Source: Patescibacteria group bacterium | GTDB taxonomy: Bacteria; Patescibacteriota; Minisyncoccia; Phycocordibacterales; UBA9973 | Assembly: GCA_040390725.1 (NCBI GenBank) | Contig: JAZJXT010000001.1 | Location: 6,896 to 70,895 of the forward strand | Direction of reading: 5' to 3' | Length of the DNA: 64,000 nt | In this document: one piece after another, positions 10,274-57,599 of the stretch | Position numbering within the stretch: position 1 is the stretch's first letter | Layout of the letters: every line of letters begins with the position of its first letter | The notes under the pieces: generated by a model | Databases searched by the model: none | What the model saw: only the letters and a program-made list of their open reading frames with translations | Told to the model about the DNA's origin: nothing | Position numbers and translations under genes: made by a program

Positions 10274-10276
10274 AAA

Positions 10277-19530: not shown

Positions 19531-19640
19531 TAATTTTTTAACTATATAGAATATAATAGTTTATGCGACATTTTGCAAGCTATTCAATTTAAGAAATTCC
19601 TCTTTTCCCTTTGAAACTTTCTCGGTGAGTGATACAATAT

Positions 19641-22600
19641 ATGTATATGAAGCTGGGAGTGAGTAGCACCAAGTTTAAATTTTTTGCAATTTTTGCTGTT
19701 GCTTTTTTTTGTTTCTTTTTTTCTGCGCATAGCGCGAGCGCTACGGCGAAGTTTGCCGTAGCTTCTGGAAACTGGAGCGCTACTTCTGGCGTTTGGGCGC
19801 TTACATCTTGCGCGACTGGCGCCGGAAATAATGTGCCGACTAGTAGTGATGCAGTGACTATTTGTAATGGAGTTACAGTTACAGTGGACGGTGCTGACGT
19901 TGCTTCTAGTATTACGGTTAATGCACCTACCACCGCAAATGGAATTACAATTAGCGGAACGAATACTCTCACTGTTACAAATGCGATTACCATGAATGCT
20001 CCGACGGCGGGAGTAAATGATACAATCGCTGTCGGCGCTGGGACTCTTTCTTCCGTAGGTATTACTATTAATGGAGGAGGTTCTTCAGGGTTTAATTCAA
20101 TTTTAAGTTTAAGTACGGGAACTATTACAACTACGGGTGGAATATCTTTTGGTGGTACAGTTGCTCAAGCACAATTGACGACGACCGACGTGGCGACGAT
20201 AAATCTGACTGGTACGATTTCTTCCGGCGGGACTCTCAGTATAAATTCCGGTACGCTTTTGAAAGCCACAGGTAGCAGTACTATAAACATTAGTAGCTCT
20301 TCTACTAATTGGGGCAAGGTTCAAGTTAATACGGGTACTCTCGGGTTGGGTGCTGCATTTACTGTGGCGACAGGTTTGCAAATTGATTCCGGCGCAACCT
20401 TGTCAGCAGGAGCAAATCTTGTAACTGATAAATGTGCGAGTACGGGATTGTCAGGGTTTACTATTAACGGAACATTATCCGGATCTGGCGGAGTAACTTT
20501 AGATACGGCGAGTTGTACTTTGGATGGTACCGGGTCAGTGACGAATACTGGCACATTTACTATGACAAATGATAAAACTATAGCTGGGACTGCGAGTTTG
20601 ACTGTGGGGGGCAGTGCTAGCGCTTCTACAATTTCTGCAGGTACAACAATAACAAATAATGGAACTTTTATTTTTGCAGGCACAGGGGCAGTGACGGGTG
20701 GTAATGCCACGACTACTATTTGGATTAACGCAGCGAATTCAACTTTGAAAATAGCAGGTACTGCTTTTTTGGCAACAGGAGTTTTAACAGCGACAGCGAG
20801 TGGTAATACTGTGGACTATAATAATAGTGCAGGGGTAGCAACAACACAAACACTTTTTAATACCACTTATTATAATTTTAATTTCGGAGGTACTAGCACG
20901 AAAGCTCTTCCTGCCGGCGGTATACAAGTTACTAATACTCTTTCTGTCAGTTCCGGTATTACGGCTACACTTAGTACTGGTGATTTTTTGACTACTAATT
21001 TAACTGTGACGGGCAGTGGAATATTTACTGGTACTGGTAGGACTATAACAATGAACGGAAATGGCGTTGGTACAGCAGGTAGATGGTTACATACTACAGG
21101 GGCAGGACAAATACGAACTAATTTAACTTTTAACTCGGCGGGAAATATTACTTTAGGAGATGGCACTACGGGATCAGCGGGTACAGTATTATGGGGGAAT
21201 TTTGGTTCTACTTTAACATGGACTGCTGGTACCATGATAACTACAAACTCTACATTAAATTTACATATGGATAATGCCCCTACAATATCTACAAATGGAA
21301 TGAAGTGGAACAATGTAACCTTGCTTAATACTGGTGGTGGAACACTTACATTGGGAAGTGACTTAGATATCGGGGGTAATTTAACTTGGCCTACTACTTC
21401 TACTGCGACTACTTTTGTCGGGGCAAATCGTATTATTACGTTACAAGGTAATTTAGTGATGGGAACTTCTTCTGCTGCAACTAACGCAGTGGCATCCGGA
21501 GCTTCTACTCAGACTATAAAAATGAATGCTAGTTCCGGTGCTCAAACTTGGTCAGGTCAACAAGCAATATCTGCAATCAGATTAACAGTAATACAGACAG
21601 GTTCGGCTTCATTCGCAATTAGCGGTACAGTGACACTTGCCACTACTGGATTTACTATTACTAGTGTTGGTTCTGGAGGATTTTCAGCAGCCGGAAGTAC
21701 CTTAAATTCATATAACAATGTTATTTTTAATACGAGTGGTTCAACATACCCCCTCTATAATGTGACTACTTGGGATGGTGGCAATACTATTCCTTTGAGT
21801 AGTAACTTATATATGACGGGAAATCTCGTTATGAATGGTAATACAAATGGTAGTAATGCTACTACTACATGGACTGGTCCATATTCAGTTACTGTTGGTG
21901 GTAACTTAACGCAAAGTTCAACTTCACTTAATATTACTGGTTCCACTAGCGGTGGTAATGTATTTCTTGGAATTATTATGAATGGCACTGGTACTTGGTC
22001 TAATGCTGCAGGTGCAACGAGCGTGATGACGGTGCCTTTGACATTTAATACTTCTGGTACGATTACTATCGGTAGTAGTGTGTATTATAGTACGGGAACT
22101 TTGTTGTATACTTTAGGCACAATTGATACATCTGCAAATAGTTCGACACTTAACATCGCAGGCTCGGCAACTTTAAATACTCCTACGGCAAGTATGAGTT
22201 GGTATAATTTAAACCAATCTACTACGGGAACTTTAACCTTGACGAGTGCAATAACCATTTCAAATACTCTTTCTGTCGCAAGTGGAGTGACTGAAACTAT
22301 TGCAACCAGTAATATAACAACAGTCAATTTAACCGTAACTAATACTGGTGTATTTTCTGGTAATGGAAGAACGATAACAGTAAGTGGAAGGTGGAGTCAC
22401 ACACAAGCCGGCTCAGGGAAAATAAGGTGCAATATAACTTTAACAAGCACTGCAACAATATCAGGAACAGTGTATTTTACAGGTGATAGTTTTCCAGTAA
22501 CATTAACAGGCGCAAGTGGAGTCACTACAACTGGAAGTATATTGGATATTGATGCTAGTGTCACATTAAATACTTCTACGATGTCATTCCAAGATATAAC

Positions 22601-25600
22601 CCATGTTGGTTCTATCGGAACGTTAACTCTTACAAGTGACTTAAACATAAATGGAAATTGGACAATGTTAGCAGGGGCAGCTGGTCTCGCAGGTGCAAAT
22701 ACAAATATATATTTAAAAGGTAATCTTAATATGGCTGCATCTGGTAGTGTTCAAGGACTTAGTACTCAAATATTATATATGAATGCAAGTTCTGGTACAC
22801 AGACTTGGTCTGGCGCACAAACTTGGAAATTTACAAAATTTATTGTCATTCAAACTGGGACAGCAGCATTTACAATGTCAGGCAGTCTCGCTCTTGATGG
22901 TGGCACATTCACTTTTACCTCTGTTGGAAGTGGAGGATTTACTAACACATCTACTGTCACAATGCTTGCCTCTTCAGGAAATATTTCATTAAGTTCCGCT
23001 AGTTCTTCTTATTCATTTAATAATGTGACAATGACTCTTTCAGCAAATAACATAACACTTCTAACAGATATTTATATTCTTGGAAATTTGGCTATAAATG
23101 GAACTGCCTCAACTCCAACAATAGGAGCATTCACCCTTTATGTAGCTGGTAATCTTTCTCAAGGTGGAACATCAACTAATGTTACCGGTACCGTAGGAAT
23201 TGTAATGAATGGATCGGGAACTTGGAGTAATACCGTAGGTGCAACGAGTGTGATGCAGGTGCCTTTGACATTTAATACCTCGGGGACGATAACACTTTCC
23301 GGAAACCTATACTATAGTACCGGAACTTTGACATACACAGCAGGCACATTATCTCCTGGCAGTTCTACTTTGAATATTCCGGCGAATACTACTTTTGCCG
23401 GAGGAATGAGTGGTAGTAATGCATTTAATAATATTGCAGTGTCAGCAGGAACTTTGACGAATAATGCGACGGCTGGTACGACAGGTTTAGCCATCACAGG
23501 AAATCTTACCGGCGCCGGGGCATTAACTCAAGGAACTAATTCTATTTTAACTTTAGGTGGAACTTCGACAATTACAACTTTGACGGCAAACACAACAGGG
23601 AATACTGTAATTTATAATGGTACGGCGGGGCAGACGGTAAAAGTACCCGCGAGTTCTACTTATATGAATTTAACTATTAACGATAGTGGACAAACAGCGA
23701 CTCTTGGCGGAGCTATTACTGTGAGTGGGAATTTAGCAATCAATACTGGAACACTGGATGATAATGGAACACAGATTACAGGTAATGCTACAAATAATTT
23801 AACGATGGCATCAGGTACGACTTTGAAAATTGGTATTGCCGGTACGGCGACGACTTTTCCTACGCTTTACACGACAGGACATACGACATTAAATTCTGCT
23901 TCGACCGTCATATATAATGCAGGAGTAACTCAAACTATTTCGTCGACGCCTGCTTATGGCAATTTGCAACTCTCTCGCGCATCCGGTACCCCGACGAAAT
24001 CTTTGAATGGTACAACGACAATAAATGGATCTTTGACTATTGACGCGAGCAATACGCTCTCTGCCGGAGCAAATCAAATAGCGCTCGGCGGAAATTATTC
24101 TAACAGTGGAACATTCACTGCAGGTACTGGAACATTTTTATTATCTGGGTCAGTGGCGCAAACTTTGTCGGGGACGATGACTAGCGGTTCGGCATTTTAC
24201 GATCTAACAATTACGAATTCTTCCGGTGCTTCAGCTAGTGATTGTGGACTCACAGGATTCACTGCTGGAATTATTTTCGGAGGATCAGCGACATCAACAC
24301 ATAACTATGTTATTACTACTGCTAATGTGCGAGTGACTTATAATGCCGGGTCAACTTATACTTTTGCAAATATAAATTGGAGCGGACAAGCCAGCGGAAC
24401 AAAAATTTATTTTAGGTCTTCGAGTGCAGGGTCCGCTTGGAATTTAAATGTTTCCGGCACACAGACTGCGGTGTCATATATAGATGTGTCTGATTCGGAT
24501 GCTCACACAGGAAGCTCTATAAATAGTGATACTACTGTGACCGATTGTAATAATAATACAAATTGGGTTTTTATTATGACGATTTCTGGTACGGCAAATG
24601 GTAATGATGGGGGCACAGTAAAGGTTGCTTTTAATAATTCTATTGATGCACACACTACTACTATTTCGGGTGGAGCTTGGACTATCAGTAATATTACGAA
24701 GCCAGCTGCGGGAGTTATTGTGACTGTTTTTGTTGATGGTGCTACTCTTGATTCAAATGAAACTACCGCTATTACAAAATACAGTTCAGGTGTTATTTCC
24801 GGTATGGTTTTGAATACAAATGTTTTAACAATTGGAAGTAATCAAAATACAAGTTTGACTACGACTAACCTCGGTCAATATACTTCTAGTAATGACGAAG
24901 ACGTAATGCAATCAGTTTCCAGCGGAGCATTATCAGTGCAGGGAACAAGTAATACATATGTAAATCCAATTCTTGCTGTTCTTAATAATAATACTCTTAC
25001 TGTAGATAGCGCTTCTACTGAAAGCATAACGACTGGTCAGTTGTATATATATGGTAGCGCTACTTTGACTGCTACCGGTACGCCGACTATTACTTTGAAT
25101 GGAACTTCCGGAACATTATTTACAAACTCAGGTACATTTACTCCAGCAACTTCTACTGTTACGCTTTCTGGCAATGGAGATGCTACTATAAATTCCGGAG
25201 CGATAACATTTTACAATTTAACTTCAAGCGGGACGGGAGTGAAAAGTGTAGATGCTTCTTCTGCATTAACATTTGCAACTTCTGGAACACTGACAGTTTC
25301 TGGGGGGACTTTTGATCCGGTGACAGCTCTCGTCGCAAGTGGTTCAAATACTTTAACTGCTTCGGCTGTACTTCGTGTTGAAGCATCTACTTTTGCCGGA
25401 TCGTATCCTGCAGGTTTCGGCACTTTGAATTTAAATTCCGGTTCTACTGTTGATTATCATTCCAGTGGAGCGCAAACAATTTCCAGCACAATTTCACCAT
25501 ATTATAATTTAACAACTTCGACAGGTGGGACAAAAACTTTAGGAGGTAATGTGACTATTTCAAATGTTTTAACAATCGGTGCTAGCTCAACACTTTCTGC

Positions 25601-28600
25601 AAGTTCTAATAATATTACATTATCAGGAACTACGGGAACACCTTTTATAGATTCTGGAACATTTTCTTCCGGCACGGGGACAGTTTCTTATACTGGAAAT
25701 AATGGTTCGGGAAATACTACGGTCTTGCCGGAAACTTATCACGATTTAACTTTAAATAATGCGAGTGAGACTTATGTATTAGGCGGAGCTACGACCATAA
25801 ATAATTTATTAACTATTACCGACGGAACACTCGATACTGATAGCACGAATCATTACAACTTTTCTACGAGTGATATTTTGATTGACACATCCGGCACGCT
25901 TTTGGGACGTGCTTCAAATATTACAGTCACAGAAAACTGGGTAAATACTGGGACATTTACCCGAGGCACTTCTACGGTGTTATTGAACGGAGACATTACG
26001 GATAACATAGCTGGAGATACTAATTTTAATAATTTAACTATTTCTAGCACTGTCGCAAAAACTGTTTACTTTACGACTACTGGCACTACTAGTGTTTATG
26101 GCATTTTTACTGTGACAGGGCATAATAGCCAGTTAATAAGTTTACTTCCAGAGCTTGCTCACCCAACAACTCAATTTCCTTTTCGGGTAATATCGCCTGG
26201 TACAGCTAGTATTAGTTATATAAATGTTTCTTATGGAGGATGCGCGGCTACCGCTATAAATATGTCACCCGTTAATTCTGTTGATGGTGGAAATAATGAC
26301 ACTTGTTGGTCTTTTGGAATTGCGATTTCCGGAACAGCAAATGGCAATGATGGAGAGACTGTAAAAATTGCAATCAATGGCACGGCGGATAGTCACACTA
26401 CTACGATATCGAGCGGAGCGTGGTCCTTTACAACTATTACTCAACCATCTTCCGGTGATATTGTTACTGTTTGGGTTGAAGGTGCTTCTGCTCCAAATAA
26501 AACAACTGCTATCACAAAATATTCTTCTGGCTCAGTTTCTGGAATGGTTTTGGATACAAATACACTGACTGTCGGGGATGCAGGTGGAGTGAGTTTGGCT
26601 GTTTCTGATTTTTCACATTATACTTCTGCTGATGACAGTTATGTGATGCATTCATATTCGAGCGGAGATTTGTCAGTGGCAGGGACTAATCCGACTTTGA
26701 AAATTTTATCTGGAAATACTTTAACTGCTTCTACTGGAGAAAGTGTAACAACAGGGAAAATTGATAATGCTGGCACTATTACTGTTACAGCTTCCAACAC
26801 TCCGAGTTTTACTTTGAACGGAACTTCGGGAACTTTGTTTACTAACTCTGGCACATTTACACCGGCGAGTTCTACGGTCACACTTTCCGGTAATGGCGAT
26901 GCGACTGTGAATTCCGGCGCTATTACTTTTTACAATTTAACAAATTCTGGCACGGGAGTGAAATCTTTGGGTGATGCGAATATTACTGTGAACCACAACA
27001 TGACAGTTTCTGGCGGTACTTTTGATCCGACTGCTTCTCGTACTATTACAGGGTCCGGCACAAATACTCTGGCTGTTTCTAGTGGAGCTACTATTCGCGC
27101 GGAGCATTCTTTATTTTCCGGTGATTGGATTTCTTTTGAAATTACGACTTTGAGTTCCGGCTCGACGGTGGATTATTATTTAAATAATGCTCAAACTATA
27201 GACAACACTCTTTCATATTCTAATTTAAATTTATCAAATAGTGGTACGAAAACTTTGGGAGGGGACACAACCATTGCAAATGTTTTGACTGTCGGCAGTA
27301 GTGCGACTCTTGATGGTAGCTCACATACTTTGACTCTTTCTGGGGCAACCGGTACGCCGTTTGTAGATTCTGGTACATTTACTTCCAGCACGGGAACTGT
27401 TTCTTATACGGGGAATTATGCGAGCGGTAATACGACGGTCTTGCCGGAAACTTACCACAATTTAACTTTAAATAATGCAAGCGAGACTTATGTTTTGAAT
27501 GGAACGACGCCAATAAATAATTTATTGACTATCACCGCAGGTACACTCGACACTGTCAGTCATAATTTTTCTACAAGTGATATCACCATTGGCGCTTCCG
27601 GCATGCTTAATGCAAATGCTTCCATTGCAACTGTCACAGAAAATTGGACAAACAATGGCACATTTAATTCTGGTACTTCTACCGTGTTGATGAATGGTGA
27701 TAATGCTCACGATCTAGTCGCTGGGACTACGAGTTTTTATAATCTTACTATCACCACTACCACTCCAAGCGTTGCCAAGGAAGTGGATTTTCCATCTACC
27801 ACTACCACAGTGATGAATGCTTTTAATGTTACAGGACATGGAGGCGCATTGATTAGTTTGTACTCTACGCCTTCTCCGACCAAGTGGAATTTTTATCCGA
27901 TGTTGGGTACTAACAATAGCGTGCGTTATGCAAAAATAAAAGATGGAGGCTGCGCTAATAATGCTATTGCTATTCGCCCGGCTAATTCCGTGGACGATGG
28001 CAACAATGATTCCTGTTGGGTTTTTTCTCCTTATGTTTACAAGCTCACAAATGCCAACACAGTAGAAGTTTACAATGATACAAATACTTCCAATCCTTCT
28101 CCGGTAAAAACTATTCAATTTTCAGATGACTATGCTTTGCCTACAAATAGTTTAGTAAAGCTAACAAGCTTGGCAGTCGATACTCACTTCAACAGACTTT
28201 ATGTGACGACAGATGATCCATCAGCTGGTCTGAAAGTTGTCGATATTAGTAATCCTTCTCCTTCCAGTTGGGTATGTTGTGCTAGTACTGTAGTTCTCTC
28301 TGATAATAGTGTGAATTTCCCCGGGCGTGATGTATATGTAGACAGTGCTGGTGTGCCTACAGTGTTGGGAGCTACGAGTTCCAAGGGCGGAATTTTTGTA
28401 ATAAATCCAAGCACTCTCGGTATTGCTTATTCAAATGTTCATAATGTTTCCGATCCTTCAGATGTCGCTCTCATTGTTCATGAACATGCCGGAATATATG
28501 ACAACACTGCTACCGGATTTATTTATGAATCAAATTATCACACATCACAACTTTATATTTATCCTTATAGCAATGTGACTCCGAGCGTAATCAGAGAAAC

Positions 28601-28994
28601 TACAAATGATATTTCGTCTTACGGTAAACCCACTGCTATTTCAGTGCATAGTATCAGTAATGGAAATACTTATTTTATGTTAGCCAATAATTCCCAAGTC
28701 GTGCATTTCTTCCCGGTTGATTATTCCACATCAAGTATTGCGGATTTAGTTTCTGCGCATGATTCTTCTTCGGTCGGTACAAATGTGATAAATGATTTGG
28801 CTTCGGCTTTGAATGATTATTTATATATCGCAGGAGGAACCGGGATTTATAAAATAGGTATTCCGTCTTCATCGCCTGCTTCTTCGTTTTATGTATTAGC
28901 GGATGGTTTTTCAAGTGTTGCGCAGGCTTCCGCCTCCGGACTCATCTTTGGCGTATCAAATGGAAATAGTACATTGTATCCTTTTACTCCATAA
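19641..28994 (+). CDS. Giant secreted repetitive surface protein (about 3,118 aa), a putative adhesin with a C-terminal LVIVD-like beta-propeller region
   Basis: Signal peptide MKLGVSS...FSAHSASA, Thr/Gly/Ser/Asn-rich beta-helix-like repeats, large internal duplications, and C-terminal LKVVDISNPSP-type motifs. The ORF-track start at 19629 is a GTG; ATG 19641 or 19647 is more likely. Confidence 0.85.
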   Translation: MYMKLGVSSTKFKFFAIFAVAFFCFFFSAHSASATAKFAVASGNWSATSGVWALTSCATGAGNNVPTSSDAVTICNGVTVTVDGADVASSITVNAPTTANGITISGTNTLTVTNAITMNAPTAGVNDTIAVGAGTLSSVGITINGGGSSGFNSILSLSTGTITTTGGISFGGTVAQAQLTTTDVATINLTGTISSGGTLSINSGTLLKATGSSTINISSSSTNWGKVQVNTGTLGLGAAFTVATGLQIDSGATLSAGANLVTDKCASTGLSGFTINGTLSGSGGVTLDTASCTLDGTGSVTNTGTFTMTNDKTIAGTASLTVGGSASASTISAGTTITNNGTFIFAGTGAVTGGNATTTIWINAANSTLKIAGTAFLATGVLTATASGNTVDYNNSAGVATTQTLFNTTYYNFNFGGTSTKALPAGGIQVTNTLSVSSGITATLSTGDFLTTNLTVTGSGIFTGTGRTITMNGNGVGTAGRWLHTTGAGQIRTNLTFNSAGNITLGDGTTGSAGTVLWGNFGSTLTWTAGTMITTNSTLNLHMDNAPTISTNGMKWNNVTLLNTGGGTLTLGSDLDIGGNLTWPTTSTATTFVGANRIITLQGNLVMGTSSAATNAVASGASTQTIKMNASSGAQTWSGQQAISAIRLTVIQTGSASFAISGTVTLATTGFTITSVGSGGFSAAGSTLNSYNNVIFNTSGSTYPLYNVTTWDGGNTIPLSSNLYMTGNLVMNGNTNGSNATTTWTGPYSVTVGGNLTQSSTSLNITGSTSGGNVFLGIIMNGTGTWSNAAGATSVMTVPLTFNTSGTITIGSSVYYSTGTLLYTLGTIDTSANSSTLNIAGSATLNTPTASMSWYNLNQSTTGTLTLTSAITISNTLSVASGVTETIATSNITTVNLTVTNTGVFSGNGRTITVSGRWSHTQAGSGKIRCNITLTSTATISGTVYFTGDSFPVTLTGASGVTTTGSILDIDASVTLNTSTMSFQDITHVGSIGTLTLTSDLNINGNWTMLAGAAGLAGANTNIYLKGNLNMAASGSVQGLSTQILYMNASSGTQTWSGAQTWKFTKFIVIQTGTAAFTMSGSLALDGGTFTFTSVGSGGFTNTSTVTMLASSGNISLSSASSSYSFNNVTMTLSANNITLLTDIYILGNLAINGTASTPTIGAFTLYVAGNLSQGGTSTNVTGTVGIVMNGSGTWSNTVGATSVMQVPLTFNTSGTITLSGNLYYSTGTLTYTAGTLSPGSSTLNIPANTTFAGGMSGSNAFNNIAVSAGTLTNNATAGTTGLAITGNLTGAGALTQGTNSILTLGGTSTITTLTANTTGNTVIYNGTAGQTVKVPASSTYMNLTINDSGQTATLGGAITVSGNLAINTGTLDDNGTQITGNATNNLTMASGTTLKIGIAGTATTFPTLYTTGHTTLNSASTVIYNAGVTQTISSTPAYGNLQLSRASGTPTKSLNGTTTINGSLTIDASNTLSAGANQIALGGNYSNSGTFTAGTGTFLLSGSVAQTLSGTMTSGSAFYDLTITNSSGASASDCGLTGFTAGIIFGGSATSTHNYVITTANVRVTYNAGSTYTFANINWSGQASGTKIYFRSSSAGSAWNLNVSGTQTAVSYIDVSDSDAHTGSSINSDTTVTDCNNNTNWVFIMTISGTANGNDGGTVKVAFNNSIDAHTTTISGGAWTISNITKPAAGVIVTVFVDGATLDSNETTAITKYSSGVISGMVLNTNVLTIGSNQNTSLTTTNLGQYTSSNDEDVMQSVSSGALSVQGTSNTYVNPILAVLNNNTLTVDSASTESITTGQLYIYGSATLTATGTPTITLNGTSGTLFTNSGTFTPATSTVTLSGNGDATINSGAITFYNLTSSGTGVKSVDASSALTFATSGTLTVSGGTFDPVTALVASGSNTLTASAVLRVEASTFAGSYPAGFGTLNLNSGSTVDYHSSGAQTISSTISPYYNLTTSTGGTKTLGGNVTISNVLTIGASSTLSASSNNITLSGTTGTPFIDSGTFSSGTGTVSYTGNNGSGNTTVLPETYHDLTLNNASETYVLGGATTINNLLTITDGTLDTDSTNHYNFSTSDILIDTSGTLLGRASNITVTENWVNTGTFTRGTSTVLLNGDITDNIAGDTNFNNLTISSTVAKTVYFTTTGTTSVYGIFTVTGHNSQLISLLPELAHPTTQFPFRVISPGTASISYINVSYGGCAATAINMSPVNSVDGGNNDTCWSFGIAISGTANGNDGETVKIAINGTADSHTTTISSGAWSFTTITQPSSGDIVTVWVEGASAPNKTTAITKYSSGSVSGMVLDTNTLTVGDAGGVSLAVSDFSHYTSADDSYVMHSYSSGDLSVAGTNPTLKILSGNTLTASTGESVTTGKIDNAGTITVTASNTPSFTLNGTSGTLFTNSGTFTPASSTVTLSGNGDATVNSGAITFYNLTNSGTGVKSLGDANITVNHNMTVSGGTFDPTASRTITGSGTNTLAVSSGATIRAEHSLFSGDWISFEITTLSSGSTVDYYLNNAQTIDNTLSYSNLNLSNSGTKTLGGDTTIANVLTVGSSATLDGSSHTLTLSGATGTPFVDSGTFTSSTGTVSYTGNYASGNTTVLPETYHNLTLNNASETYVLNGTTPINNLLTITAGTLDTVSHNFSTSDITIGASGMLNANASIATVTENWTNNGTFNSGTSTVLMNGDNAHDLVAGTTSFYNLTITTTTPSVAKEVDFPSTTTTVMNAFNVTGHGGALISLYSTPSPTKWNFYPMLGTNNSVRYAKIKDGGCANNAIAIRPANSVDDGNNDSCWVFSPYVYKLTNANTVEVYNDTNTSNPSPVKTIQFSDDYALPTNSLVKLTSLAVDTHFNRLYVTTDDPSAGLKVVDISNPSPSSWVCCASTVVLSDNSVNFPGRDVYVDSAGVPTVLGATSSKGGIFVINPSTLGIAYSNVHNVSDPSDVALIVHEHAGIYDNTATGFIYESNYHTSQLYIYPYSNVTPSVIRETTNDISSYGKPTAISVHSISNGNTYFMLANNSQVVHFFPVDYSTSSIADLVSAHDSSSVGTNVINDLASALNDYLYIAGGTGIYKIGIPSSSPASSFYVLADGFSSVAQASASGLIFGVSNGNSTLYPFTP
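20890..23450 (+). repeat. Intragenic tandem duplication, 2 x roughly 1.28 kb (protein-level repeats of about 430 aa)
   Basis: Paired blocks, for example TNTLSVSSGITATLSTGDFLTTNLTVTGSGIFTGTGRTIT versus SNTLSVASGVTETIATSNITTVNLTVTNTGVFSGNGRTIT, and TWSNAAGATSVMTVPLTFNTSGTIT versus TWSNTVGATSVMQVPLTFNTSGTIT. Boundaries are approximate. Confidence 0.5.
24570..28030 (+). repeat. Intragenic tandem duplication, 2 x roughly 1.73 kb (roughly 80-85% nucleotide identity by eye)
   Basis: ISGTANGNDGGTVKVAFNNSIDAHTTTISGGAW... matches AISGTANGNDGETVKIAINGTADSHTTTISSGAW... Both units end in NSVDGGNNDTCW and NSVDDGNNDSCW. Confidence 0.6.
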
Positions 28995-29003: not shown

Positions 29004-29558
29004 ATGAAAATAAAAATGTTAAATAAAATTATAAATAAAAAATCAGGTTTTACTCTCATCGAGCTTGTTTTATATGTGAGCTTGGTGTCAGTGTTGGTGC
29101 TGGGTGTAGCTTCTTTTTGGAATGTGATAAGGAGTATTGGATTAAAAAATAAATCAGTGTCTGCTGTCGAAGAGCAGGGGGCATTTGTTTCTGATATTAT
29201 GAATGAGCGTATTCGCCAAGCGACGCACGTATGCACTCCGACGAGCGCTGGTGACACTGCACACACTCTCGACCTCGATACCAATTGTACTGTGCACACC
29301 GGCAGTGAAGTGAGTCTTGCGTTAGACATTCATGGGATTTTAATTCTGACAGAGGGAGGGCAGGATTATTCATTGACTGATGAGAGGGTCAGCATGCCTT
29401 CGAGTTCTATTAATTTTACCAAAGCGCAAGACACAGTGCATGGAGGAGCAGAGAGCGTGAATTATACTTTTGTAATGCAGTCGAAAGATTATTCTTCCAG
29501 TTCTCCTTTTAGTTATGAGAAAACATTTTCCGGCGGGGGAGTATTGAGAGTTTATTAA
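29004..29558 (+). CDS. type IV pilin-like protein (prepilin N-terminus G|FTLIELV)
   Basis: Class III signal peptide KSGFTLIELVLYVSLVSVLVLG with Glu at +5. Confidence 0.7.
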   Translation: MKIKMLNKIINKKSGFTLIELVLYVSLVSVLVLGVASFWNVIRSIGLKNKSVSAVEEQGAFVSDIMNERIRQATHVCTPTSAGDTAHTLDLDTNCTVHTGSEVSLALDIHGILILTEGGQDYSLTDERVSMPSSSINFTKAQDTVHGGAESVNYTFVMQSKDYSSSSPFSYEKTFSGGGVLRVY

Positions 29559-29563: not shown

Positions 29564-29959
29564 ATGAAAATAAAAAAACAAAAAGGATATGTGACTCTCA
29601 TGATGATGATTATCATCGGAGCTCTGACTGCGGGCATAGTTTATACTATTATGTCCGACAGTATCAGTAGTTTGCAGATGGGGGTTTCTTTTAGTCAGAC
29701 TTATAAAGCACGAAGCTATGCGAATGCTTGCGCCGAAGAGGCTTTATTTAGAATTCATAATGGCGACATAACTGCACATGAAGACAATACAAGCTCACCG
29801 ATTTCTTTTGGCACAAATGAAACTTGCACTTATGATGCGACAGTGTCAGGTGGAAATGTTACAATAACTGTGACAGGTAATGCAAAAAGGGCGATTGTTT
29901 CTGAAACGGTAAACGGCACTGTTTCAGGTGGTGCTGTACACATTACAAGTTGGCAATAA
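29564..29959 (+). CDS. PilX-like minor pilin / pilus assembly protein (putative)
   Basis: N-terminal hydrophobic segment QKGYVTLMMMIIIGALTAG without the conserved Glu; sits within the pilus operon. Confidence 0.4.
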   Translation: MKIKKQKGYVTLMMMIIIGALTAGIVYTIMSDSISSLQMGVSFSQTYKARSYANACAEEALFRIHNGDITAHEDNTSSPISFGTNETCTYDATVSGGNVTITVTGNAKRAIVSETVNGTVSGGAVHITSWQ

Positions 29960-29974: not shown

Positions 29975-31111
29975 ATGAAAAAACAAAATTCGGGTTCGAT
30001 AATAATTTTTGGAATAGTTTTTCTTTTAATCCTTACCGGTTTTTATTTTGGTTACAAAAAAGGACTTTTCTCTCCGACAAAAGAGCCCGCTATCAAAACT
30101 TTGATTCCTGCTCCGGTTGTTATTCCGGCATCAGACATAACTCCAGCACCAAAACCAACCGTAGTAGCTCCGAAAAAAACTTCTACCACTACAACAGTTA
30201 AAAAAACAACCGCCCCTGTCGTAAAAGTCACAACTCCTCCTGCGCCCACAGCACCACTTCCGCCTCCTTTACCAAAGATTGTTTCTGCTACTGCCACGAA
30301 TCCGGGGACTTCTACGATTATAATAACTTGGAAAACAAACGTGCCTACCGTAGGGCAAATTCTTTACGGCGAACAAAGCTCTTTGACTGGGACATATCCG
30401 TTATCGACTAATCAGGAAAATGTTTTATCTACGGATCACACGTATACATTTTCTGACCTTATCCCGGAAAAAAAATATTATTATAAAATTTATGTGACGG
30501 ATGCATCAGGGAATAAAACCAATTCTTCAGAAAATTCTTTTGTACCGGCATTGGCCACTATATCCGGGGTAAAAACTGACAATATTTCTGCTACCGGAGC
30601 GACTATTTCTTGGACAACAAATTTTAAGACAAAAGGGCAGGTAGTTTATAGTACAGAAAGTTCGTCTACCGGAGTTTATTCTTTTAGTACTCCTTTGACC
30701 AACACTTTTGAAACATCTCATAGTGTTGACCTTTCCAATCTTACTTATAATACAAAATATTACTATCGAGTTATTTTTGTTGATGCGGCTGGCATTAAAG
30801 TTTCTTCTCAGGAATATTCTTTTTCTTCTTCTATTATTTATAACGTTTCTTATAGCAAGAGCTACTCAGGGATTTCTGGAGTTATTATTTCTTGGAGTAC
30901 CAGTGTTCCGACTAAGACAGAAATAAGATATGGCACCCAAAGATCAACTGCCGGCATTTATCCTTTTAGCGCTACCGACAGTAGTCTTTTGATGTATCAC
31001 AATATGACACTTTATAATTTGGATATAAATGCAACTTATTATTATAGGATTATTACCACTGACGCCAATAATAAAAAAACCACTTCTGTGGAGTATAGTT
31101 TCAATGCATAG
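29975..31111 (+). CDS. membrane-anchored protein with four tandem Fn3-like beta-sandwich repeats
   Basis: N-terminal transmembrane segment, a Pro/Thr linker, and four repeats of the form TxISWTTNxxTxGxVxYG...YYYRV. Confidence 0.65.
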   Translation: MKKQNSGSIIIFGIVFLLILTGFYFGYKKGLFSPTKEPAIKTLIPAPVVIPASDITPAPKPTVVAPKKTSTTTTVKKTTAPVVKVTTPPAPTAPLPPPLPKIVSATATNPGTSTIIITWKTNVPTVGQILYGEQSSLTGTYPLSTNQENVLSTDHTYTFSDLIPEKKYYYKIYVTDASGNKTNSSENSFVPALATISGVKTDNISATGATISWTTNFKTKGQVVYSTESSSTGVYSFSTPLTNTFETSHSVDLSNLTYNTKYYYRVIFVDAAGIKVSSQEYSFSSSIIYNVSYSKSYSGISGVIISWSTSVPTKTEIRYGTQRSTAGIYPFSATDSSLLMYHNMTLYNLDINATYYYRIITTDANNKKTTSVEYSFNA

Positions 31112-31200: not shown

Positions 31201-31710
31201 ATGCGAAATTTTGGGAATAAGAACAAAAAATTATCAAAGGGTTTTACATTACTTGAACTCCTCTTGGTTATAGCCGGTATTGGTATCTTGGCGACTATCG
31301 TTTTCGTGGTTTTGGACCCGGCAACAACTATTACTAAAACTAACAATGCAAAAAGGTTGAGTGATGTTCAGGGTATTTTATCCGCGATGGAATTGTATTC
31401 TTTTGATCATGATGGCAACAGAGCTGGAACAAGCTGGGATACTGTTACTTATGACTATGAGCCTATTTGTTATGGTACGACAAACGACATGCCTATTACT
31501 TGCACATCCGGTTCTATAGATTTAACCGCTCATCTTTTGACTGATGCAAAATATTTGTCAGCAGTTCCGTTTGATCCTTCATTAATATCAACTCCGCCTT
31601 CAGTTGGAGGTGATAGCGGATATGAAGCCAAAGTACTTGCTACCGGAGTCGTGACTATTCGCTCTGAGACCAATACTGCAGCATCAGTGACTGCTAAATT
31701 TAATCCGTAA
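31201..31710 (+). CDS. type IV pilin (candidate major pilin, PilA-like)
   Basis: KGFTLLELLLVIAGIGILATIV prepilin motif with Glu at +5; 169 aa. Confidence 0.8.
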   Translation: MRNFGNKNKKLSKGFTLLELLLVIAGIGILATIVFVVLDPATTITKTNNAKRLSDVQGILSAMELYSFDHDGNRAGTSWDTVTYDYEPICYGTTNDMPITCTSGSIDLTAHLLTDAKYLSAVPFDPSLISTPPSVGGDSGYEAKVLATGVVTIRSETNTAASVTAKFNP

Positions 31711-35541: not shown

Positions 35542-37188
35542 ATGACAAATGAAGAAATAAAAAAAATACTCATAGATGGAAATTACGCAACTCCGGAAGA
35601 TATAACAAAAGTCGAAGATGAGATGAATCGCGCTGATTCTTTGTCTGATGCATTGATAAGGGAAGGCATAGTCACTAGCACTATCTTGGGGCAAGCCATC
35701 GCCGAGTTTTATGGAGTTCCTTTTGCAGATTTGAATTCACATCCTCCATTTCGTGAAAGTGTTTTGAAAATACCTGAAGATACGGCTCGAAAATATCGGC
35801 TTATTGCAGTGAGTGAAGACCAAGACGGGGTGACGATAGCCACTGACAATCCAAAACAAGAAGATTTAATAAAAATTCTACCTACTCTCTTTAAAGATGT
35901 AAAAATTTATTTGGTTTATTCTACATCAGAACAAATCGATGAACAATTTTCTGCTTACCAAAAATCCCTCGAGACAAGATTTTCAAAAATCATAAAAGAA
36001 AACAGTCGTGTTGCTCCGGAAATTATCGACCAAATTATCGGTGATGCTCTCGGCCTTCATTCTTCCGATGTGCACTTTGAACCGATAGGGGAAGATGTGG
36101 TGATTCGTTTTCGTATAGACGGGGTGATGCATGAAGCTGGAAAATTCAAAAAACTTTTTTATGAAAATATTTTAAACCGTGTGAAAGTTCAGGCAAAGCT
36201 GCGTATTGACGAGCATTATGCCGCGCAAGACGGATCTATTCGTTATCAAAAAGACGGACATTTTATTGACTTGCGTGTATCTATCGTGCCGACAGTCGAT
36301 GGAGAAAAAATAGTTATTAGAATTTTGGGTGAATATGTGCGTGGTTTTACTTTGGGAGATTTAGGTCTTTCAAAAGAAGATGAAACAATTATCCGTGAAG
36401 CTGCAGACAAGCCATTCGGCATGATACTTGTCGCAGGTCCGACAGGTTCCGGAAAAACTACGACACTTTATGCACTCATTCGTTTATTAAATAGTCCAAA
36501 AGTGAATATTACTACTATTGAGGATCCTGTGGAATATCATTTGGCAGGTATAAATCAAATTCAGGTGAATCCCGCTACTGATCTTACTTTTGCAAAAGGT
36601 TTGCGTTCGATTGTGCGTCAGGATCCGGATGTAGTATTGGTAGGTGAAATACGCGACAGGGAAACAGCTGAGATAGCCGTGAATGCGGCATTGACCGGGC
36701 ACCTTTTGCTCTCTACTTTTCACGCCAATGATTCCGCGACGGTTATCCCTAGACTTTTAAATATGGGCATCGAGCCATTTCTGCTTTCTTCTACATTCGA
36801 ACTTATTATTTCTCAGCGCTTGGTGCGAAAGATTTGCATGCAATGCAGATACGGCGTGGAGTATACCGACACCAAGCTTGTTGAAAAATTTAAACAAGCA
36901 AAAACATTTTTCTCGGAAAAGAAAATAACTTTATATGAAGGCAAGGGTTGTGATGCTTGCAATCATACGGGCTTTACCGGACGCAGTGCTATTTTTGAAT
37001 TTATTAAAATTTCTCCGGGTATAGAGGATTTGATTATAAAGAATCCTTCCTCGGGGCAGATCTGGGAATTGGCGCGCAAGGAAGGCGCTATATCAATGTT
37101 TGAAGACGGTATTAGAAAAGTAAAAAATGGCATCACTACTATAGATGAACTCTTGCGTGTCGCCGAGCCTCCGCGAGATATTATTTAA
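35542..37188 (+). CDS. pilB: type IV pilus assembly ATPase PilB (GspE family)
   Basis: N-terminal GSPII_E_N-like domain, Walker A GPTGSGKTTTLYA, and a C-terminal CxxC zinc site. Confidence 0.92.
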   Translation: MTNEEIKKILIDGNYATPEDITKVEDEMNRADSLSDALIREGIVTSTILGQAIAEFYGVPFADLNSHPPFRESVLKIPEDTARKYRLIAVSEDQDGVTIATDNPKQEDLIKILPTLFKDVKIYLVYSTSEQIDEQFSAYQKSLETRFSKIIKENSRVAPEIIDQIIGDALGLHSSDVHFEPIGEDVVIRFRIDGVMHEAGKFKKLFYENILNRVKVQAKLRIDEHYAAQDGSIRYQKDGHFIDLRVSIVPTVDGEKIVIRILGEYVRGFTLGDLGLSKEDETIIREAADKPFGMILVAGPTGSGKTTTLYALIRLLNSPKVNITTIEDPVEYHLAGINQIQVNPATDLTFAKGLRSIVRQDPDVVLVGEIRDRETAEIAVNAALTGHLLLSTFHANDSATVIPRLLNMGIEPFLLSSTFELIISQRLVRKICMQCRYGVEYTDTKLVEKFKQAKTFFSEKKITLYEGKGCDACNHTGFTGRSAIFEFIKISPGIEDLIIKNPSSGQIWELARKEGAISMFEDGIRKVKNGITTIDELLRVAEPPRDII

Positions 37189-37194: not shown

Positions 37195-38292
37195 ATGGAA
37201 CCTAAAAAGAAAAAAATATCAAAAAGTTCTTTTGGAATATATTTGGGACTGGCCAAAGAAAAAGAATATTTAATGGAAAATTTGAGTTTTCTTATTTCTT
37301 CCGGAATGCCGATAGGGGAAGCGCTTCGCTCTATTCAGGTCGAACTCAAAAGCAATTTTATGAAAAAAATTGTCGAGCAAGCAGTGGAAGACGTCGAAAA
37401 TGGCGTACCACTTTATCGGGCGCTCGACGATACCGGGCTTTTCGGAATGCATGAAATTTCCTTGATAAAAAATGGAGAAGAGTCCGGACTCCTGGTGGGG
37501 AATTTAAAAGTAATCTCTGAGCAGGCTGCCAAGAATCGTATTTTCAGATCTCGTTTGTCTTCGGCTTTGATGTATCCGACGCTTATATTGTCTGTCACCT
37601 TTTTGGTGGGTACAGGGGTGGCTTGGTTTATTTTACCCAGATTAGCGACGATGTTTTCTCAGCTTCATATAAAGCTCCCGCTTATCACTCAGATTTTTAT
37701 TTCTGTCGGTATTTTTTTGAGTAAATACGGTTCTATATTTTTCCCTTTTTTAATTGCTTTTGTTGTTTTGGCCATTTACTTGCTTTTTTATTTTCCAAAG
37801 ACACGTATAGCCGGGCAGTATCTTTTATTTTCGATTCCGGGCATCAGCAGATTGATTCAAGAATTGGAAATTTCCAGAATGGGATATCTTTTAGGATCAC
37901 TTAATAATGCCGGATTGCCTTTACTGCAAGCTATCGGCTCGCTTCGCGAATCTACACTTTCTCCTTTTTATGCGAAGTTTTATGATTTCTTATATATAAA
38001 AATAGAAGAAGGTTTTTCTTTTGAGGAAAGTTTTAAAGCATACAAAAATATTCGCAAGATATTGCCTTTATCCATTCAGCAAATAATAACTATCGGAGAA
38101 CAATCAGGCAATCTTTCGACTGCTCTTTTGAAAATAGGCCAAGCTTATGAAGAAAAAACAGAAGTCACCAGTAAAAATATTTCTATTGCCCTCGAGCCTA
38201 TTTTGCTTGTGATAGTTTGGGGGGGAGTGATGTTGGTGGCTATCGCTGTTATTTTGCCTATTTATAGTTTGGTTGGCGGAATAGGAAAGTAA
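37195..38292 (+). CDS. pilC: type IV pilus platform protein PilC (GspF family)
   Basis: Two GspF-like repeats with transmembrane helices. Confidence 0.88.
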   Translation: MEPKKKKISKSSFGIYLGLAKEKEYLMENLSFLISSGMPIGEALRSIQVELKSNFMKKIVEQAVEDVENGVPLYRALDDTGLFGMHEISLIKNGEESGLLVGNLKVISEQAAKNRIFRSRLSSALMYPTLILSVTFLVGTGVAWFILPRLATMFSQLHIKLPLITQIFISVGIFLSKYGSIFFPFLIAFVVLAIYLLFYFPKTRIAGQYLLFSIPGISRLIQELEISRMGYLLGSLNNAGLPLLQAIGSLRESTLSPFYAKFYDFLYIKIEEGFSFEESFKAYKNIRKILPLSIQQIITIGEQSGNLSTALLKIGQAYEEKTEVTSKNISIALEPILLVIVWGGVMLVAIAVILPIYSLVGGIGK

Positions 38293-38293: not shown

Positions 38294-38755
38294 ATGAAAT
38301 TAAAAAATAATAAATTTTTTAATAGGGGCTTCACTTTATTTGAGCTTTTGCTCGTGGTGGCGGCATTCGCTACTATCGCGCTCATCGTCGGTCCTTTTTC
38401 CAGCTCGTCGGTAATACGCAGTAATTTAGATGTAGCATCTCGCAATGTGGAATCTTCTTTGCATCGGGCGTATACTTATGCCAGATCAGGAGAAAATAAT
38501 TCTGATTGGGGAGTGCATATTACCAGCACTGATGTGATTGTATTTTCCGGCTCAACTTATTCTGGACGAGATGCTGACCTTGATGAAGATGCAAAGATTG
38601 CTTCTTCGGTTACCTTGGGTGGATTAAGCGATGTTATCTTTATGCAAAAAACCGGCACTCCGACCAATGACAGTATCGGCGAGATTACTTTGGAGTCAGA
38701 TCAAGTTACAAAACATATTAATATAAATGGAGCGGGTGCGGTGACTGTAAATTAA
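38294..38755 (+). CDS. type IV pilin-like protein
   Basis: NRGFTLFELLLVVAAFATIALIV prepilin motif. Confidence 0.75.
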   Translation: MKLKNNKFFNRGFTLFELLLVVAAFATIALIVGPFSSSSVIRSNLDVASRNVESSLHRAYTYARSGENNSDWGVHITSTDVIVFSGSTYSGRDADLDEDAKIASSVTLGGLSDVIFMQKTGTPTNDSIGEITLESDQVTKHININGAGAVTVN

Positions 38756-38756: not shown

Positions 38757-40628
38757 ATGCAAAATAAAATTAAAAATAAATATAATAAAAAAAGTACCGG
38801 TTTTTCAATTATTGAAATTATTTTATCTATTTCTTTATTTTCTATAATAACTCTGGGTGCTATATCTTCCGCCTTATACGGAGAAAGTGCGCAAATACAA
38901 TCCGGCGCTCGCAAGCGTGCGACCCTCATCGCGGATCAGACAGTAGAAATTCTCCGTGCAATTCGTGATTCCTCTTCGAGGGGTTTTGGAGCTATTACTA
39001 TTTCCGGCAGGCATCAAGGCTTGGGCATGCACAATGGCGCATGGACATTGATAGCGGACCCGGATACTGTTGATGATTATTTTTTACGCACTGTGGATGT
39101 CACCTTAGCTGATGATGGTATTGCAAAAAAAATCACCACCACTGTTTGTTGGCCGGCTACTGATTGCCCCAGTGCCGGGGATTCTGTTTCTATAGTTACA
39201 TATTTGACCGACTGGCGCAGTGGCGGGACGGGAACTGCAGGAGGAATAAAAGTTGCGGTCGCTGGTGATGGACAACATGCTTATATGATTACTGATCACA
39301 ACAGTCTCGAAGTTTTTAATATCACTAATCCGGCTCTTAACTCTTGGACACCAATGGGCACAGCGTCACTAGGAGGGGATATCAACGGACTTCCTACCAA
39401 TCTTTTTTATAGTGCTTATGGTGGTCAAAAATTTGTTTACGTGTCATCGAGTAATCCTTCAGCTGGATTTCAAATTGTAAATGTTTCCGATCCTACTTCA
39501 CCGCAAGTTTACGGCACTGCGTATGTCACGGTAGAAGGGGATAGTAATTCTACTGTTGATTCTGTCTGGGCTGATACGCAAACAGGGGAAGCATTTTTAC
39601 TCGCGCACAATAGTGACAGCAGTGTCAGTGAAATTTTTATGGTTGATGCTAGGGATCCTTCGGCTCCTAATATAATTTTACTTCCTACGGCGACATATTC
39701 GGTCGCGAATCAAGTCATAGGAGGTCTAGCCGTCGGAGATATTTCTTCACAACCTAAAATGTGCACGACCGCAGGAGGATCGGTAGCTACAGGTTATTCC
39801 TTGTATTGTTATGATTACAATTTTGATTTTTCTAATCCTACACCAGCGCCTTCTCTGGCTGAAGATGGTGTTTTGAGTACTTCGCATGGTTCTTGGGCTC
39901 CATCTCATACGATTGCTATTTATAATAATGATTATTACACGACTCCTGGAGGACAAATAAGTAAAAATGATTCCACTCCTGTGACTATTTCCAGCAATGA
40001 TATTTATGATATGTCGTTGACCACTCGCGAGGGCAGGCCTTATGCATATTTGGCTGTGCCTAGTGACACGACTGGCTTTAAAGAAGTTGATATTTTTGAT
40101 ATTAATAATCCTGTAATTATAACTGCTAGGAATACTGTCGGTGCACTTTACGGTGTTGTTTATGATAGTACTACAAGTACTCCATATGCTTTTGGTTCGG
40201 ATTCCATCGATGGTTTTGTTTCTTTTTTGCCGACTACTGTAGGAATAAACATGACGCCTTTTGATGGCATAGATGCGACGACGATAAAAGGTTCAGATTT
40301 TGTGCATTGTCTGCCTGTTGTTTCACCGAGTACTGATCATGGTTGTCCGGTAACTTATAGATTAACAAATGTCAGTAGTGGAAATTTAGCTTATACAATA
40401 TCTTCGGACGAGTCATGGGTAGTTCTTTCTGGTTCAGGTAATACTCTTTCACCTACTGATCATGACGATATTATTGCATCTGTGGATGTTGCAGAAGTTA
40501 ATACTGCTAATTTGAGTGAAGGCACTCATTCTGCCACTATTACTTTGACTTATGGTTCCACGCACATTACTCGTACGGTTTCTTTAATAGTGAATCCTGC
40601 AGTAGGAACAAAAGTCCGCGCGCAGTAA
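38757..40628 (+). CDS. large pilin-like protein with C-terminal LVIVD-type beta-propeller (putative pilus tip adhesin)
   Basis: Prepilin N-terminus STGFSIIEIILSISLF, then repeated hxVxDxSNPxxP motifs (LEVFNITNPALNS, FQIVNVSDPTSPQ, IFMVDARDPSAPN, KEVDIFDINNPV). Confidence 0.7.
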   Translation: MQNKIKNKYNKKSTGFSIIEIILSISLFSIITLGAISSALYGESAQIQSGARKRATLIADQTVEILRAIRDSSSRGFGAITISGRHQGLGMHNGAWTLIADPDTVDDYFLRTVDVTLADDGIAKKITTTVCWPATDCPSAGDSVSIVTYLTDWRSGGTGTAGGIKVAVAGDGQHAYMITDHNSLEVFNITNPALNSWTPMGTASLGGDINGLPTNLFYSAYGGQKFVYVSSSNPSAGFQIVNVSDPTSPQVYGTAYVTVEGDSNSTVDSVWADTQTGEAFLLAHNSDSSVSEIFMVDARDPSAPNIILLPTATYSVANQVIGGLAVGDISSQPKMCTTAGGSVATGYSLYCYDYNFDFSNPTPAPSLAEDGVLSTSHGSWAPSHTIAIYNNDYYTTPGGQISKNDSTPVTISSNDIYDMSLTTREGRPYAYLAVPSDTTGFKEVDIFDINNPVIITARNTVGALYGVVYDSTTSTPYAFGSDSIDGFVSFLPTTVGINMTPFDGIDATTIKGSDFVHCLPVVSPSTDHGCPVTYRLTNVSSGNLAYTISSDESWVVLSGSGNTLSPTDHDDIIASVDVAEVNTANLSEGTHSATITLTYGSTHITRTVSLIVNPAVGTKVRAQ

Positions 40629-51946: not shown

Positions 51947-51953
51947 AATATCT

Positions 51954-53576: not shown

Positions 53577-53611
53577 TTACAAATACCTATTAATTATGCT
53601 ATTATCTTAAT

Positions 53612-55105: not shown

Positions 55106-55116
55106 GATTTATTATT

Positions 55117-56208: not shown

Positions 56209-56211
56209 ACT

Positions 56212-56724: not shown

Positions 56725-56843
56725 CCCACTAACCTTAATAGTGGAAAAAAGAATCGATTGCACGGCTTTATGTCTGCTCTCGATTCTTTTTAATTTTGGC
56801 AGGTAAATTTATCCATACTAAGGCGAATCTATTTTGTAAAAGG

Positions 56844-57596: not shown

Positions 57597-57599
57597 TTT

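Follow-up and report, generated by a model that had tools for sequence, protein, structure and literature searches.

A putative modular minor pilin and a co-encoded giant secreted protein carry homologous predicted beta-propellers in a type IV pilus locus of Patescibacteria

Introduction

Patescibacteria are ultrasmall bacteria that live attached to other microbes, and type IV pili are the best-supported organelle of this attachment. How these bacteria recognise and hold a host is, to our knowledge, largely unknown. Here we analyse a type IV pilus locus in a 64,000-nucleotide stretch of DNA (the window) from a Patescibacteria group bacterium (GTDB lineage Bacteria; Patescibacteriota; Minisyncoccia; Phycocordibacterales; UBA9973; NCBI GenBank assembly GCA_040390725.1, contig JAZJXT010000001.1, positions 6,896 to 70,895 of the forward strand). 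Our subject is a putative modular minor pilin of 623 amino acids (aa), the product of V4439_00250 (P0001), which carries a predicted beta-propeller, and its relation to a giant secreted protein of the same locus that ends in a homologous module. A hypothetical protein of a Patescibacteria metagenome-assembled genome (MAG) has the same sequence as the 623-aa product.

In modular pilins, a short linker joins an N-terminal pilin module to a grafted functional one; examples from Streptococcus sanguinis are PilB, whose added module is of the vWA type, and PilC, whose added module is a lectin, and their display at the pilus tip as adhesins has been proposed (PMC8179133). The InterPro survey of this class includes an 860-residue pilin of Candidatus Falkowbacteria that carries 12 copies of IPR013211 (PMC8179133), which is the LVIVD repeat (PMC10210494). 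The 623-aa protein falls under the published definition, having a pilin module, a short linker and a non-pilus module (PMC8179133), and tip display and binding are proposed for it as well. It differs in that its LVIVD-type propeller is divergent and undetected by Pfam, an additional immunoglobulin (Ig)-like domain is present, and a paralogous module is predicted on a co-encoded giant. In Nanosynbacter lyticus TM7x (Saccharibacteria), the minor pilin PilX2 has a seven-bladed propeller and is required for host binding (PMC11623550). PilX2 and the window protein are both minor pilin-like products of pilus loci in Patescibacteria, with a seven-bladed propeller (predicted in the window protein) and a candidate role as tip adhesin in episymbiosis. 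The blades of PilX2 are of the RCC1 type, its prepilin signal is not canonical and no giant partner has been reported for it, whereas the blades of the window protein are of the LVIVD type, its G|FxxxE signal is canonical and its pilin module is GspI/PilV-like.

The giant itself resembles PilY1/PilC in being a large, Sec-secreted non-pilin that is encoded among minor pilin genes (also at the related loci L004 and L009) and ends in a predicted seven-bladed propeller. In PilY1, however, the C-terminal propeller is constant and the N-terminus variable, whereas the giants have a constant stalk and a variable C-terminal module, and their propeller belongs to another family. CofB of enterotoxigenic Escherichia coli (ETEC) is likewise a large minor pilin; it has additional beta domains at its C-terminus and is the proposed adapter for a co-encoded secreted protein, CofJ (PMC8179133). 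Those two proteins have no homologous module in common, whereas the window pair carries predicted paralogous propellers. Giant genes of Omnitrophota encode very large secreted proteins and lie beside GspE/GspF-type genes and small genes with class III signal peptides, as in the window (bioRxiv 10.1101/2023.11.21.568195). They belong to another phylum, their domains are different, and a different role, cell wall degradation in predation, is proposed for them; no module shared with a pilin has been reported.

A pilin fused to LVIVD repeats is thus already known from the published survey, as is a propeller-bearing minor pilin in host binding from Saccharibacteria. The pilin alone is ordinary for its phylum, and what deserves description is its pairing with the giant and the recurrence of such pairing with other modules. 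Full-text literature searches found no description of a pilin-borne module conservedly paired with the terminal module of a co-encoded giant, and the conserved pairing appears to be new. We know of no structural or functional study of any LVIVD pilin.

Homology of the pilin and giant propellers

By sequence comparison, the last 324 aa of the giant and the propeller of the 623-aa pilin are paralogous modules that are homologous end to end. BLASTP of the pilin against the giant C-terminus gave 33% identity over 79 aa (E = 3e-6), and alignment of the profile of three pilin orthologs with that of two giant C-termini gave an hhalign probability of 95.4% (E = 1.7e-8, 116 columns). With five giant modules and six pilin propellers the probability was 99.4% (E = 1.7e-21), and the alignment ran end to end over 277 columns (positions 5-324 against 13-331); a control with the template reversed returned 0.2% (E = 0.29). 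The two propellers are about 21% identical in the profile alignment. Reciprocal searches with hidden Markov models (HMMs) of both propeller families against all open reading frames (ORFs) of the window and of six related loci matched only these two gene families.

An earlier note on this DNA, made from the sequence alone, had reported repeated LVIVD-like motifs in the 623-aa protein and the same motif in the C-terminus of the giant, and both observations hold. The 623-aa protein contains four copies of the strict pattern [LIVMF]x[LIVMF]x[DN]x[STRN][DN]P (aa 184, 238, 293 and 444), where shuffled sequences predict 0.0075 occurrences, an enrichment of more than 500-fold. The pattern is found once in the giant (LKVVDISNP, aa 2868, nucleotide 28230; 0.02 expected) and in none of the other ORFs of the window. 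The similarity extends beyond the motif, as the profile alignment indicates: seven LVIVD-equivalent strands can be read in both the pilin and the giant, and the full motif is retained in the giant only in blades 1 and 2. A chance or compositional match between two Ser/Thr/Asn/Pro-rich proteins might be suspected, given that both are compositionally biased and that the Pfam LVIVD model stays under its cut-off in the giant and is absent in the window pilin. The end-to-end alignment with its reversed control and the specificity of the reciprocal searches nevertheless refute it, the motif enrichment in the pilin also speaks against it, and we consider its probability to be practically nil.

Both propellers appear to be divergent relatives of LVIVD and not members that Pfam recognises. 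The LVIVD model (PF08309 / IPR013211; cut-off 20.2 bits) had no match to the 623-aa protein at E <= 1 and one match to the giant C-terminus at 16.1 bits, while two orthologs of the pilin, P0002 and P0003, exceed the cut-off at 24.4 and 20.3 bits. Against canonical LVIVD pilin propellers, hhalign gave 99.8% (E = 2.7e-28) for the pilin propeller family, which identifies the repeats of the 623-aa protein as those of a probable LVIVD-type propeller, and 98.4% (E = 7e-15) for the giant module family.

AlphaFold2 (AF2) modelled the last 324 aa of the giant, from a 12-sequence alignment, with a predicted local distance difference test (pLDDT) score of 78.9 and a predicted template modelling (TM) score of 0.81, and placed 28 strands in seven four-stranded blades. 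In a Foldseek search of the PDB, this model matched seven-bladed WD40-type propellers with TM scores of 0.62-0.67. The unrelated folds that the earlier note had named as the outcome against a shared module were thus not obtained, an indirect result as the giant domain alone is modelled. Seven blades in the pilin propeller would follow from its end-to-end alignment with the modelled giant domain. Sequence searches of the PDB with the 623-aa pilin, the giant C-terminus and the pilin-module profile returned only pilin N-terminal helices or noise.

Architecture and relatives of the 623-aa pilin

The N-terminus of the 623-aa protein reads ...NKKSTG|FSIIEIILSISLFSIITLGAISSAL, with Gly at -1, Phe at +1 and Glu at +5 of the predicted cleavage site, followed by a hydrophobic helix of about 20 residues; the residues G15, F16 and E20 are invariant in an alignment of eight members. 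This agrees with the prepilin N-terminus that had been read from the sequence, although the model scores stay below their cut-offs, at 19.2 bits for Pfam N_methyl (PF07963; cut-off 21.2) and 11.9-14.4 bits for TIGR02532 (cut-off 16.3). More remote members of the same pilin-module family exceed the N_methyl cut-off (30.4 bits at L009 and 29.2 bits at L028). Gene context points the same way, towards a pilin-type subunit. The genes for PilB, PilC, a 153-aa pilin and the 623-aa pilin are spaced by 1-6 nucleotides (nt), with the last one starting 1 nt after the 153-aa pilin gene; it closes this operon, and the next gene lies on the opposite strand. Orthologs of the 623-aa pilin sit in the same PilB-PilC arrangement, with T2SSE and T2SSF Pfam matches.

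Within the pilin-module family (n = 8), the XpsI model matched all eight members and the GspI, PilV and ComGE models matched 7/8, in every case with scores below the curated cut-offs, and models for H, J, K or G (major) pilins matched one or two of the eight. The sub-cut-off match of the 623-aa protein to GspI covers positions 1-96 of the 101-position model. An assignment to the I class (GspI/PilV/ComGE) is consistent with these matches, albeit weakly. A Gly-rich linker (SGGTGTAGG) leads from the pilin module to the propeller. The propeller, which the earlier note had described as the C-terminal domain, proved to be a middle domain (aa 162-492), and an Ig/BACON-like domain fills aa ~497-623. 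P0062 and the K-like pilin of L009 have this last domain as well. We considered whether it is common to the pilin and the giants and rejected this, as an HMM search found the giants to be without it.

A profile of the propeller plus the C-terminal domain matched 9378 proteins at E <= 0.001 among 1.84 billion representatives. These matches fall in two classes, one with repeats on the first ~100 positions (LVIVD blade pairs) and one with repeats on the Ig-like domain; for positions 364-451 of the profile, many very large proteins have matching copies in tandem. Prepilin N-termini were found in 7 of the top 150 propeller-profile matches. A scan of metagenomes with the pilin module retrieved 29 loci, and 7 of the 10 longest proteins carry clear LVIVD repeats (37-103 bits), which suggests that GspI/PilV-like minor pilins commonly bear an LVIVD-type propeller. 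One such relative, P0109, has two LVIVD propellers in tandem on one pilin.

The giant secreted protein

The giant begins with a Sec signal peptide (...FFFSAHSASA|TAKF), continues in a Thr/Ser/Gly-rich stalk with repeated units and ends in the C-terminal propeller. In all giants of the window and the related loci, the stalk closes with the motif Y-x-D-V-x-D-G-G-C ... G-N-N-[DQ]-x-C-W directly before the terminal module. NN[DQ]xCW is found at aa 2221 and 2791 of the window giant, in which the motif also closes an internal unit. As read from the translation, the stalk of the window giant also contains two tandem duplicate units of ~570 aa that start with ISGTANGNDG... Across the giants the type of stalk is constant, and the C-terminal module varies between loci.

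We considered the giant as a member of the PilY1 family and rejected this, as a Pfam scan of its last 364 aa found no PilY1/PilC propeller (PF05567 / IPR008707), the sub-cut-off LVIVD match being the only one. Homologue searches with the giant C-terminus, as a single sequence and as a five-sequence alignment, were empty and missed even the cluster representatives P0153 and P0154, hence they are uninformative; the 90% cluster of the window giant is represented by a 46-aa fragment, and empty word-based searches with giant C-termini say nothing about absence.

Conservation and descent of the pair

The earlier note had asked for a test of the co-occurrence of the two genes across genomes, and four genomes (the window, L001/L010, L003 and L004) do have a pilin propeller and a giant module at a single type IV pilus locus. 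In the closest genomes, L001/L010 and L003, the entire locus is syntenic, with giants of 1732 and 3281 aa. The more distant L004 has the order PilB-PilC-pilin(LamG)-[pilin+propeller, P0008]-giant(1820 aa)-pilin, and its giant terminal module scores 84 bits. A scan with one genome per species added one further giant with a propeller module (1897 aa), at L009; this propeller giant (giant B) directly follows genes for I-, J- and K-like pilins, and the I-class pilin there bears a different module. The giant-type module was therefore found in five genomes, all of them Nomurabacteria-like, with giant lengths of 1732, 1820, 1897, 3117 and 3281 aa. Pilin-borne propellers are also present in loci that have no giant in their readable flanks.

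In a neighbour-joining tree, the giant modules form one clade with 93-99% support and the pilin-type clade has 52% support; the branching orders of the two agree. Pilin orthologs are 51-57% identical between the window and P0002/P0003, and giant modules are 26-46% identical across genomes. The two propellers are accordingly old paralogs that were inherited together, with no sign of recent exchange. Recent gene conversion between them was considered and is rejected by their separate clades.

Two further features were observed at L004. An H-like pilin of 395 aa (L004:8851-10038) carries a lectin-type LamG_3 module, and the adjacent giant has LamG_3 and DUF2341. A specific pairing through LamG was considered and rejected, as the likeness is only generic for the LamG family (31-33% identity over 65-78 aa). 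At the K-like position lies a gene for a 126-aa protein (L004:18120-18500) with precomputed bAvd/23S_rRNA_IVP Pfam matches; Avd is an accessory protein of diversity-generating retroelements.

Matched terminal modules at other loci

A correspondence between the terminal module of a giant and that of a small surface neighbour has arisen several times, with different modules. At L009, the last ~163 aa of giant A (L009:2-2020, its 5' end outside the locus) are 33% identical (E = 7e-12) to the C-terminal module of the neighbouring I-class pilin of 321 aa, whose gene (L009:2056-3021) starts 36 nt downstream; Pfam has no match for this module, which is not a propeller. In a Saccharibacteria MAG (L011), the last ~170 aa of the giant (4361-10555) are 58% identical (E = 2e-52) to the C-terminus of the product of ORF 10650-11705, and in another (L012) the last ~170 aa of the giant (2324-9961) are 42% identical (E = 3e-30) to the C-terminus of that of ORF 10010-11128. 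Both partner ORFs encode non-pilins with a Sec signal, and the shared module of the giant follows the motif GNNDSCW. Such matched modules at several loci hint at a rule by which giants are integrated with smaller surface proteins.

The same loci hold other genes of note. At L011, ComEC lies directly upstream of the giant, and proteins with dockerin and cohesin domains are encoded downstream. L009 encodes a J-like minor pilin of 433 aa with SBBP/NHL propeller repeats (3027-4328) and a K-like pilin of 320 aa (4352-5314) whose BACON-like Ig domain is related to the one at the C-terminus of the 623-aa protein. Several minor pilins of one tip set would thus be modular, since the J-like and K-like proteins both carry extra domains.

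Possible role and alternative explanations

We propose that the 623-aa protein is probably a modular minor pilin that presents its propeller as a binding head at the filament tip, and that the same kind of head sits on the giant fibre; we hold this with moderate confidence. The protein would be processed by prepilin peptidase, enter the priming complex of minor pilins and end at the filament tip, with the propeller exposed as the binding head. Its likely target would be some structure at the surface of the cell that hosts these episymbionts. One kind of head would then be carried by two scaffolds, a retractable pilus and a long Sec-secreted fibre, which seems the most economical reading of the link between pilin and giant and which we rank ahead of docking and domain shuffling. 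The proposal of a tip head draws on the precedents of modular pilins (PMC8179133) and of PilX2 in TM7x (PMC11623550); the domain architecture, the homology of the propellers, the predicted fold of the giant module, the operon context and the co-inheritance come from the analysis itself, whereas tip location, an adhesin role and related ligands of the two propellers are inferred. If correct, the same head on a giant fibre within the pilus operon of one lineage would give a concrete pair of partners for pilus-mediated attachment, and a starting point for assigning functions to LVIVD repeats and to giant surface proteins, both of which lack an established one.

Several points weigh against this proposal. 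We know of no established ligand for LVIVD propellers. A ligand common to both propellers is far from assured because they are only ~21% (profile) to 33% (BLASTP segment) identical, and an identical ligand is not implied for paralogs that fall, in addition, in separate clades. The I-class assignment rests on matches that all lie below curated cut-offs, and the fold of the pilin propeller rests on homology because the AF2 model of the full 623-aa protein with three orthologs was unusable (pLDDT 35.5). The giant has no recognisable anchor after cleavage of its signal peptide, which leaves its retention on the cell as a second scaffold unexplained. Within the window we found no gene for a prepilin peptidase, for PilT or for PilMNO.

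The missing anchor could be explained differently if the propeller of the giant seats on the pilus tip through the homologous propeller of the pilin, so that the pilus extends and retracts a 3,000-residue fibre. A giant with a Sec signal and no anchor, whose propeller is conserved behind stalks of very different length, would suit such docking, and so would its constant position beside minor pilin genes on the same strand (9 nt upstream of one in the window). The order I-J-K-giant at L009 mirrors pilV-pilW-pilX-pilY1, the tandem propellers of P0109 indicate that pairs of propellers at a tip exist, and CofB-CofJ and PilY1 offer precedents (PMC8179133). Module matches between giants and small neighbours moreover recur with three other unrelated modules, which is easier to explain if the match is required. 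Yet at L009 the propeller of giant B has no counterpart on the I-class pilin, which bears another module, the partner of the giant in the Saccharibacteria loci is a non-pilin, and the giant module has no Pfam PilY1/PilC match; the constant stalk and variable C-terminal module of the giants are also the reverse of PilY1, in which the constant C-terminal propeller is the carrier (PMC8179133). On balance we regard docking as unlikely, if worth keeping in mind. A broader version treats the terminal modules of giants in general as matching modules, each pairing with a co-encoded small carrier that bears the same module; the carrier would be an I-class minor pilin in Nomurabacteria-like genomes and a Sec-secreted surface protein in Saccharibacteria. 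We think this distinctly unlikely. Were it true, a retractable pilus would bear a 3,000-residue fibre at its tip, and a functional equivalent of PilY1 would have been invented independently in Patescibacteria by duplication of a module onto both partners.

The binding-head proposal also has to be set against explanations that deny a functional link or a surface pilus. The propellers may stem from an old exchange or duplication between neighbouring genes whose products now act independently, with co-occurrence reflecting no more than the shared ancestry of a few genomes. The small and uniformly Nomurabacteria-like set of five genomes would fit such shuffling, as would the deep separation of the two propeller clades with no recent exchange, the pilin-propellers that have no giant in readable flanks, and the merely generic LamG likeness at L004. 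Both copies were nevertheless kept while the four genomes diverged to 51-57% identity in the pilins and 26-46% in the giant modules, and similar pairings arose independently with other modules at L009, L011 and L012, so that we find shuffling without function to be an improbable account. Alternatively, the locus might make no surface pilus at all and instead a short competence (Com) or type II secretion pseudopilus, which would hold the propeller at the envelope, for example in DNA uptake or export of the giant. The small pilin upstream matches ComGD, the pilin-module family matches ComGE and GspI as well as PilV, PilT is missing from the window, and ComEC lies directly upstream of the related giant at L011; Omnitrophota giant genes, too, sit beside type II secretion system- or type IV pilus-like loci with class III signal peptide genes (bioRxiv 10.1101/2023.11.21.568195). 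Against a pseudopilus, an extracellular extension of ~470 aa is hard to place in an envelope that lacks a periplasm, the giant has a Sec signal of its own, and Patescibacteria are known to build long pili on their surface, with elaborate minor pilins (PMC11623550). The gene order, finally, is unlike that of com operons. In those, the major pilin follows ComGB. A pseudopilus therefore seems very unlikely to us.

Gene content of the locus and neighbouring features

The features of the pilus locus are listed in Table 1.

Table 1. Coordinates of the pilus locus features in the window (nucleotide 1 is the first of the 64,000)
Feature	Position	Strand	Basis or remarks
Giant protein (MES2023086.1, V4439_00180)	19629..28994	+	3121 aa from GTG, or 3117 aa from ATG at 19641 (NCBI)
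Predicted C-terminal seven-bladed propeller of the giant, last 324 aa	28020..28991	+	AF2, Foldseek, hhalign, reciprocal HMM
Minor pilin, 184 aa, J-like by position	29004..29558	+	Pfam N_methyl 24.9 bits (above cut-off); weak pseudopilin-model matches
K-like (GspK/PilX/ComGG-type) protein, 131 aa, pilin-like hydrophobic N-terminus without Glu5 (KG|YVTLMMM)	29564..29959	+	Position
Membrane-anchored protein, 378 aa, three FN3 / purple-acid-phosphatase-N-like domains	29975..31111	+	Pur_ac_phosph_N 70.3 bits, fn3
Candidate major pilin, 169 aa (KG|FTLLELLLV)	31201..31710	+	TIGR02532 21.2 bits (above cut-off)
PilB/GspE-type assembly ATPase	35542..37188	+	Walker A GPTGSGKT; orthologs with MshEN + T2SSE
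PilC/GspF-type platform protein	37195..38292	+	ORF; orthologs with T2SSF
Minor pilin, 153 aa, GspH/ComGD-like	38294..38755	+	TIGR02532 22.8 bits (above cut-off); ComGD E 2e-5 (below curated cut-off)
Putative modular minor pilin gene, 623 aa	38757..40628	+	ORF; leader, pilin module, linker, propeller, Ig-like domain
Class III (prepilin) leader peptide, aa 1-15, ends at Gly15	38757..38801	+	Predicted cleavage G|FSIIE, read from sequence
Pilin module, aa 16-155, GspI/PilV/ComGE-like (I-class)	38802..39221	+	Matches all under curated cut-offs
LVIVD-type beta-propeller, aa 162-492	39240..40232	+	Motifs, Pfam scores of orthologs, hhalign; seven blades inferred
Ig-like (BACON-like) C-terminal domain, aa ~497-623	40245..40625	+	Weak Pfam BACON_2/BACON matches

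The J-like, K-like and candidate major pilin genes form a second block, which is headed by the giant gene. The J-like gene begins 9 nt past the stop codon of the giant and has an ortholog in every related locus. For the 131-aa protein that follows, no family match was found, and its K-like class is suggested by position, size and the missing Glu5. The 378-aa FN3 protein, whose gene separates the minor pilin genes from that of the candidate major pilin, is kept in the window, L001, L003 and L004 and could be an anchor or adaptor. The candidate major pilin matches the GspG and GspH models with E values of 1e-5 to 2e-6, under their cut-offs. Simpler relatives of the locus (L005, L006 and L008) have the order PilB-PilC-pilin(~150 aa)-[pilin+propeller]-pilin(~175)-~135 aa-pilin(~160), which may be compared with the core minor pilins H-I-J-K, that is, with GspH-K and FimU-PilVWX.

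Directly downstream of the 623-aa pilin gene, on the reverse strand (40700-41542), lies a gene for a 280-aa protein with a lipoprotein-like signal (...MALVSCG) and a low-complexity body that is extremely rich in Gly, Tyr, Met and Asn. Farther along, positions 50160-62114 encode a ParB-N/DNA methylase fusion, a small helix-turn-helix protein (similar to a transposase or a terminase small subunit), a large serine recombinase and several ORFs without a Pfam match, and this content suggests an integrated mobile element or prophage.

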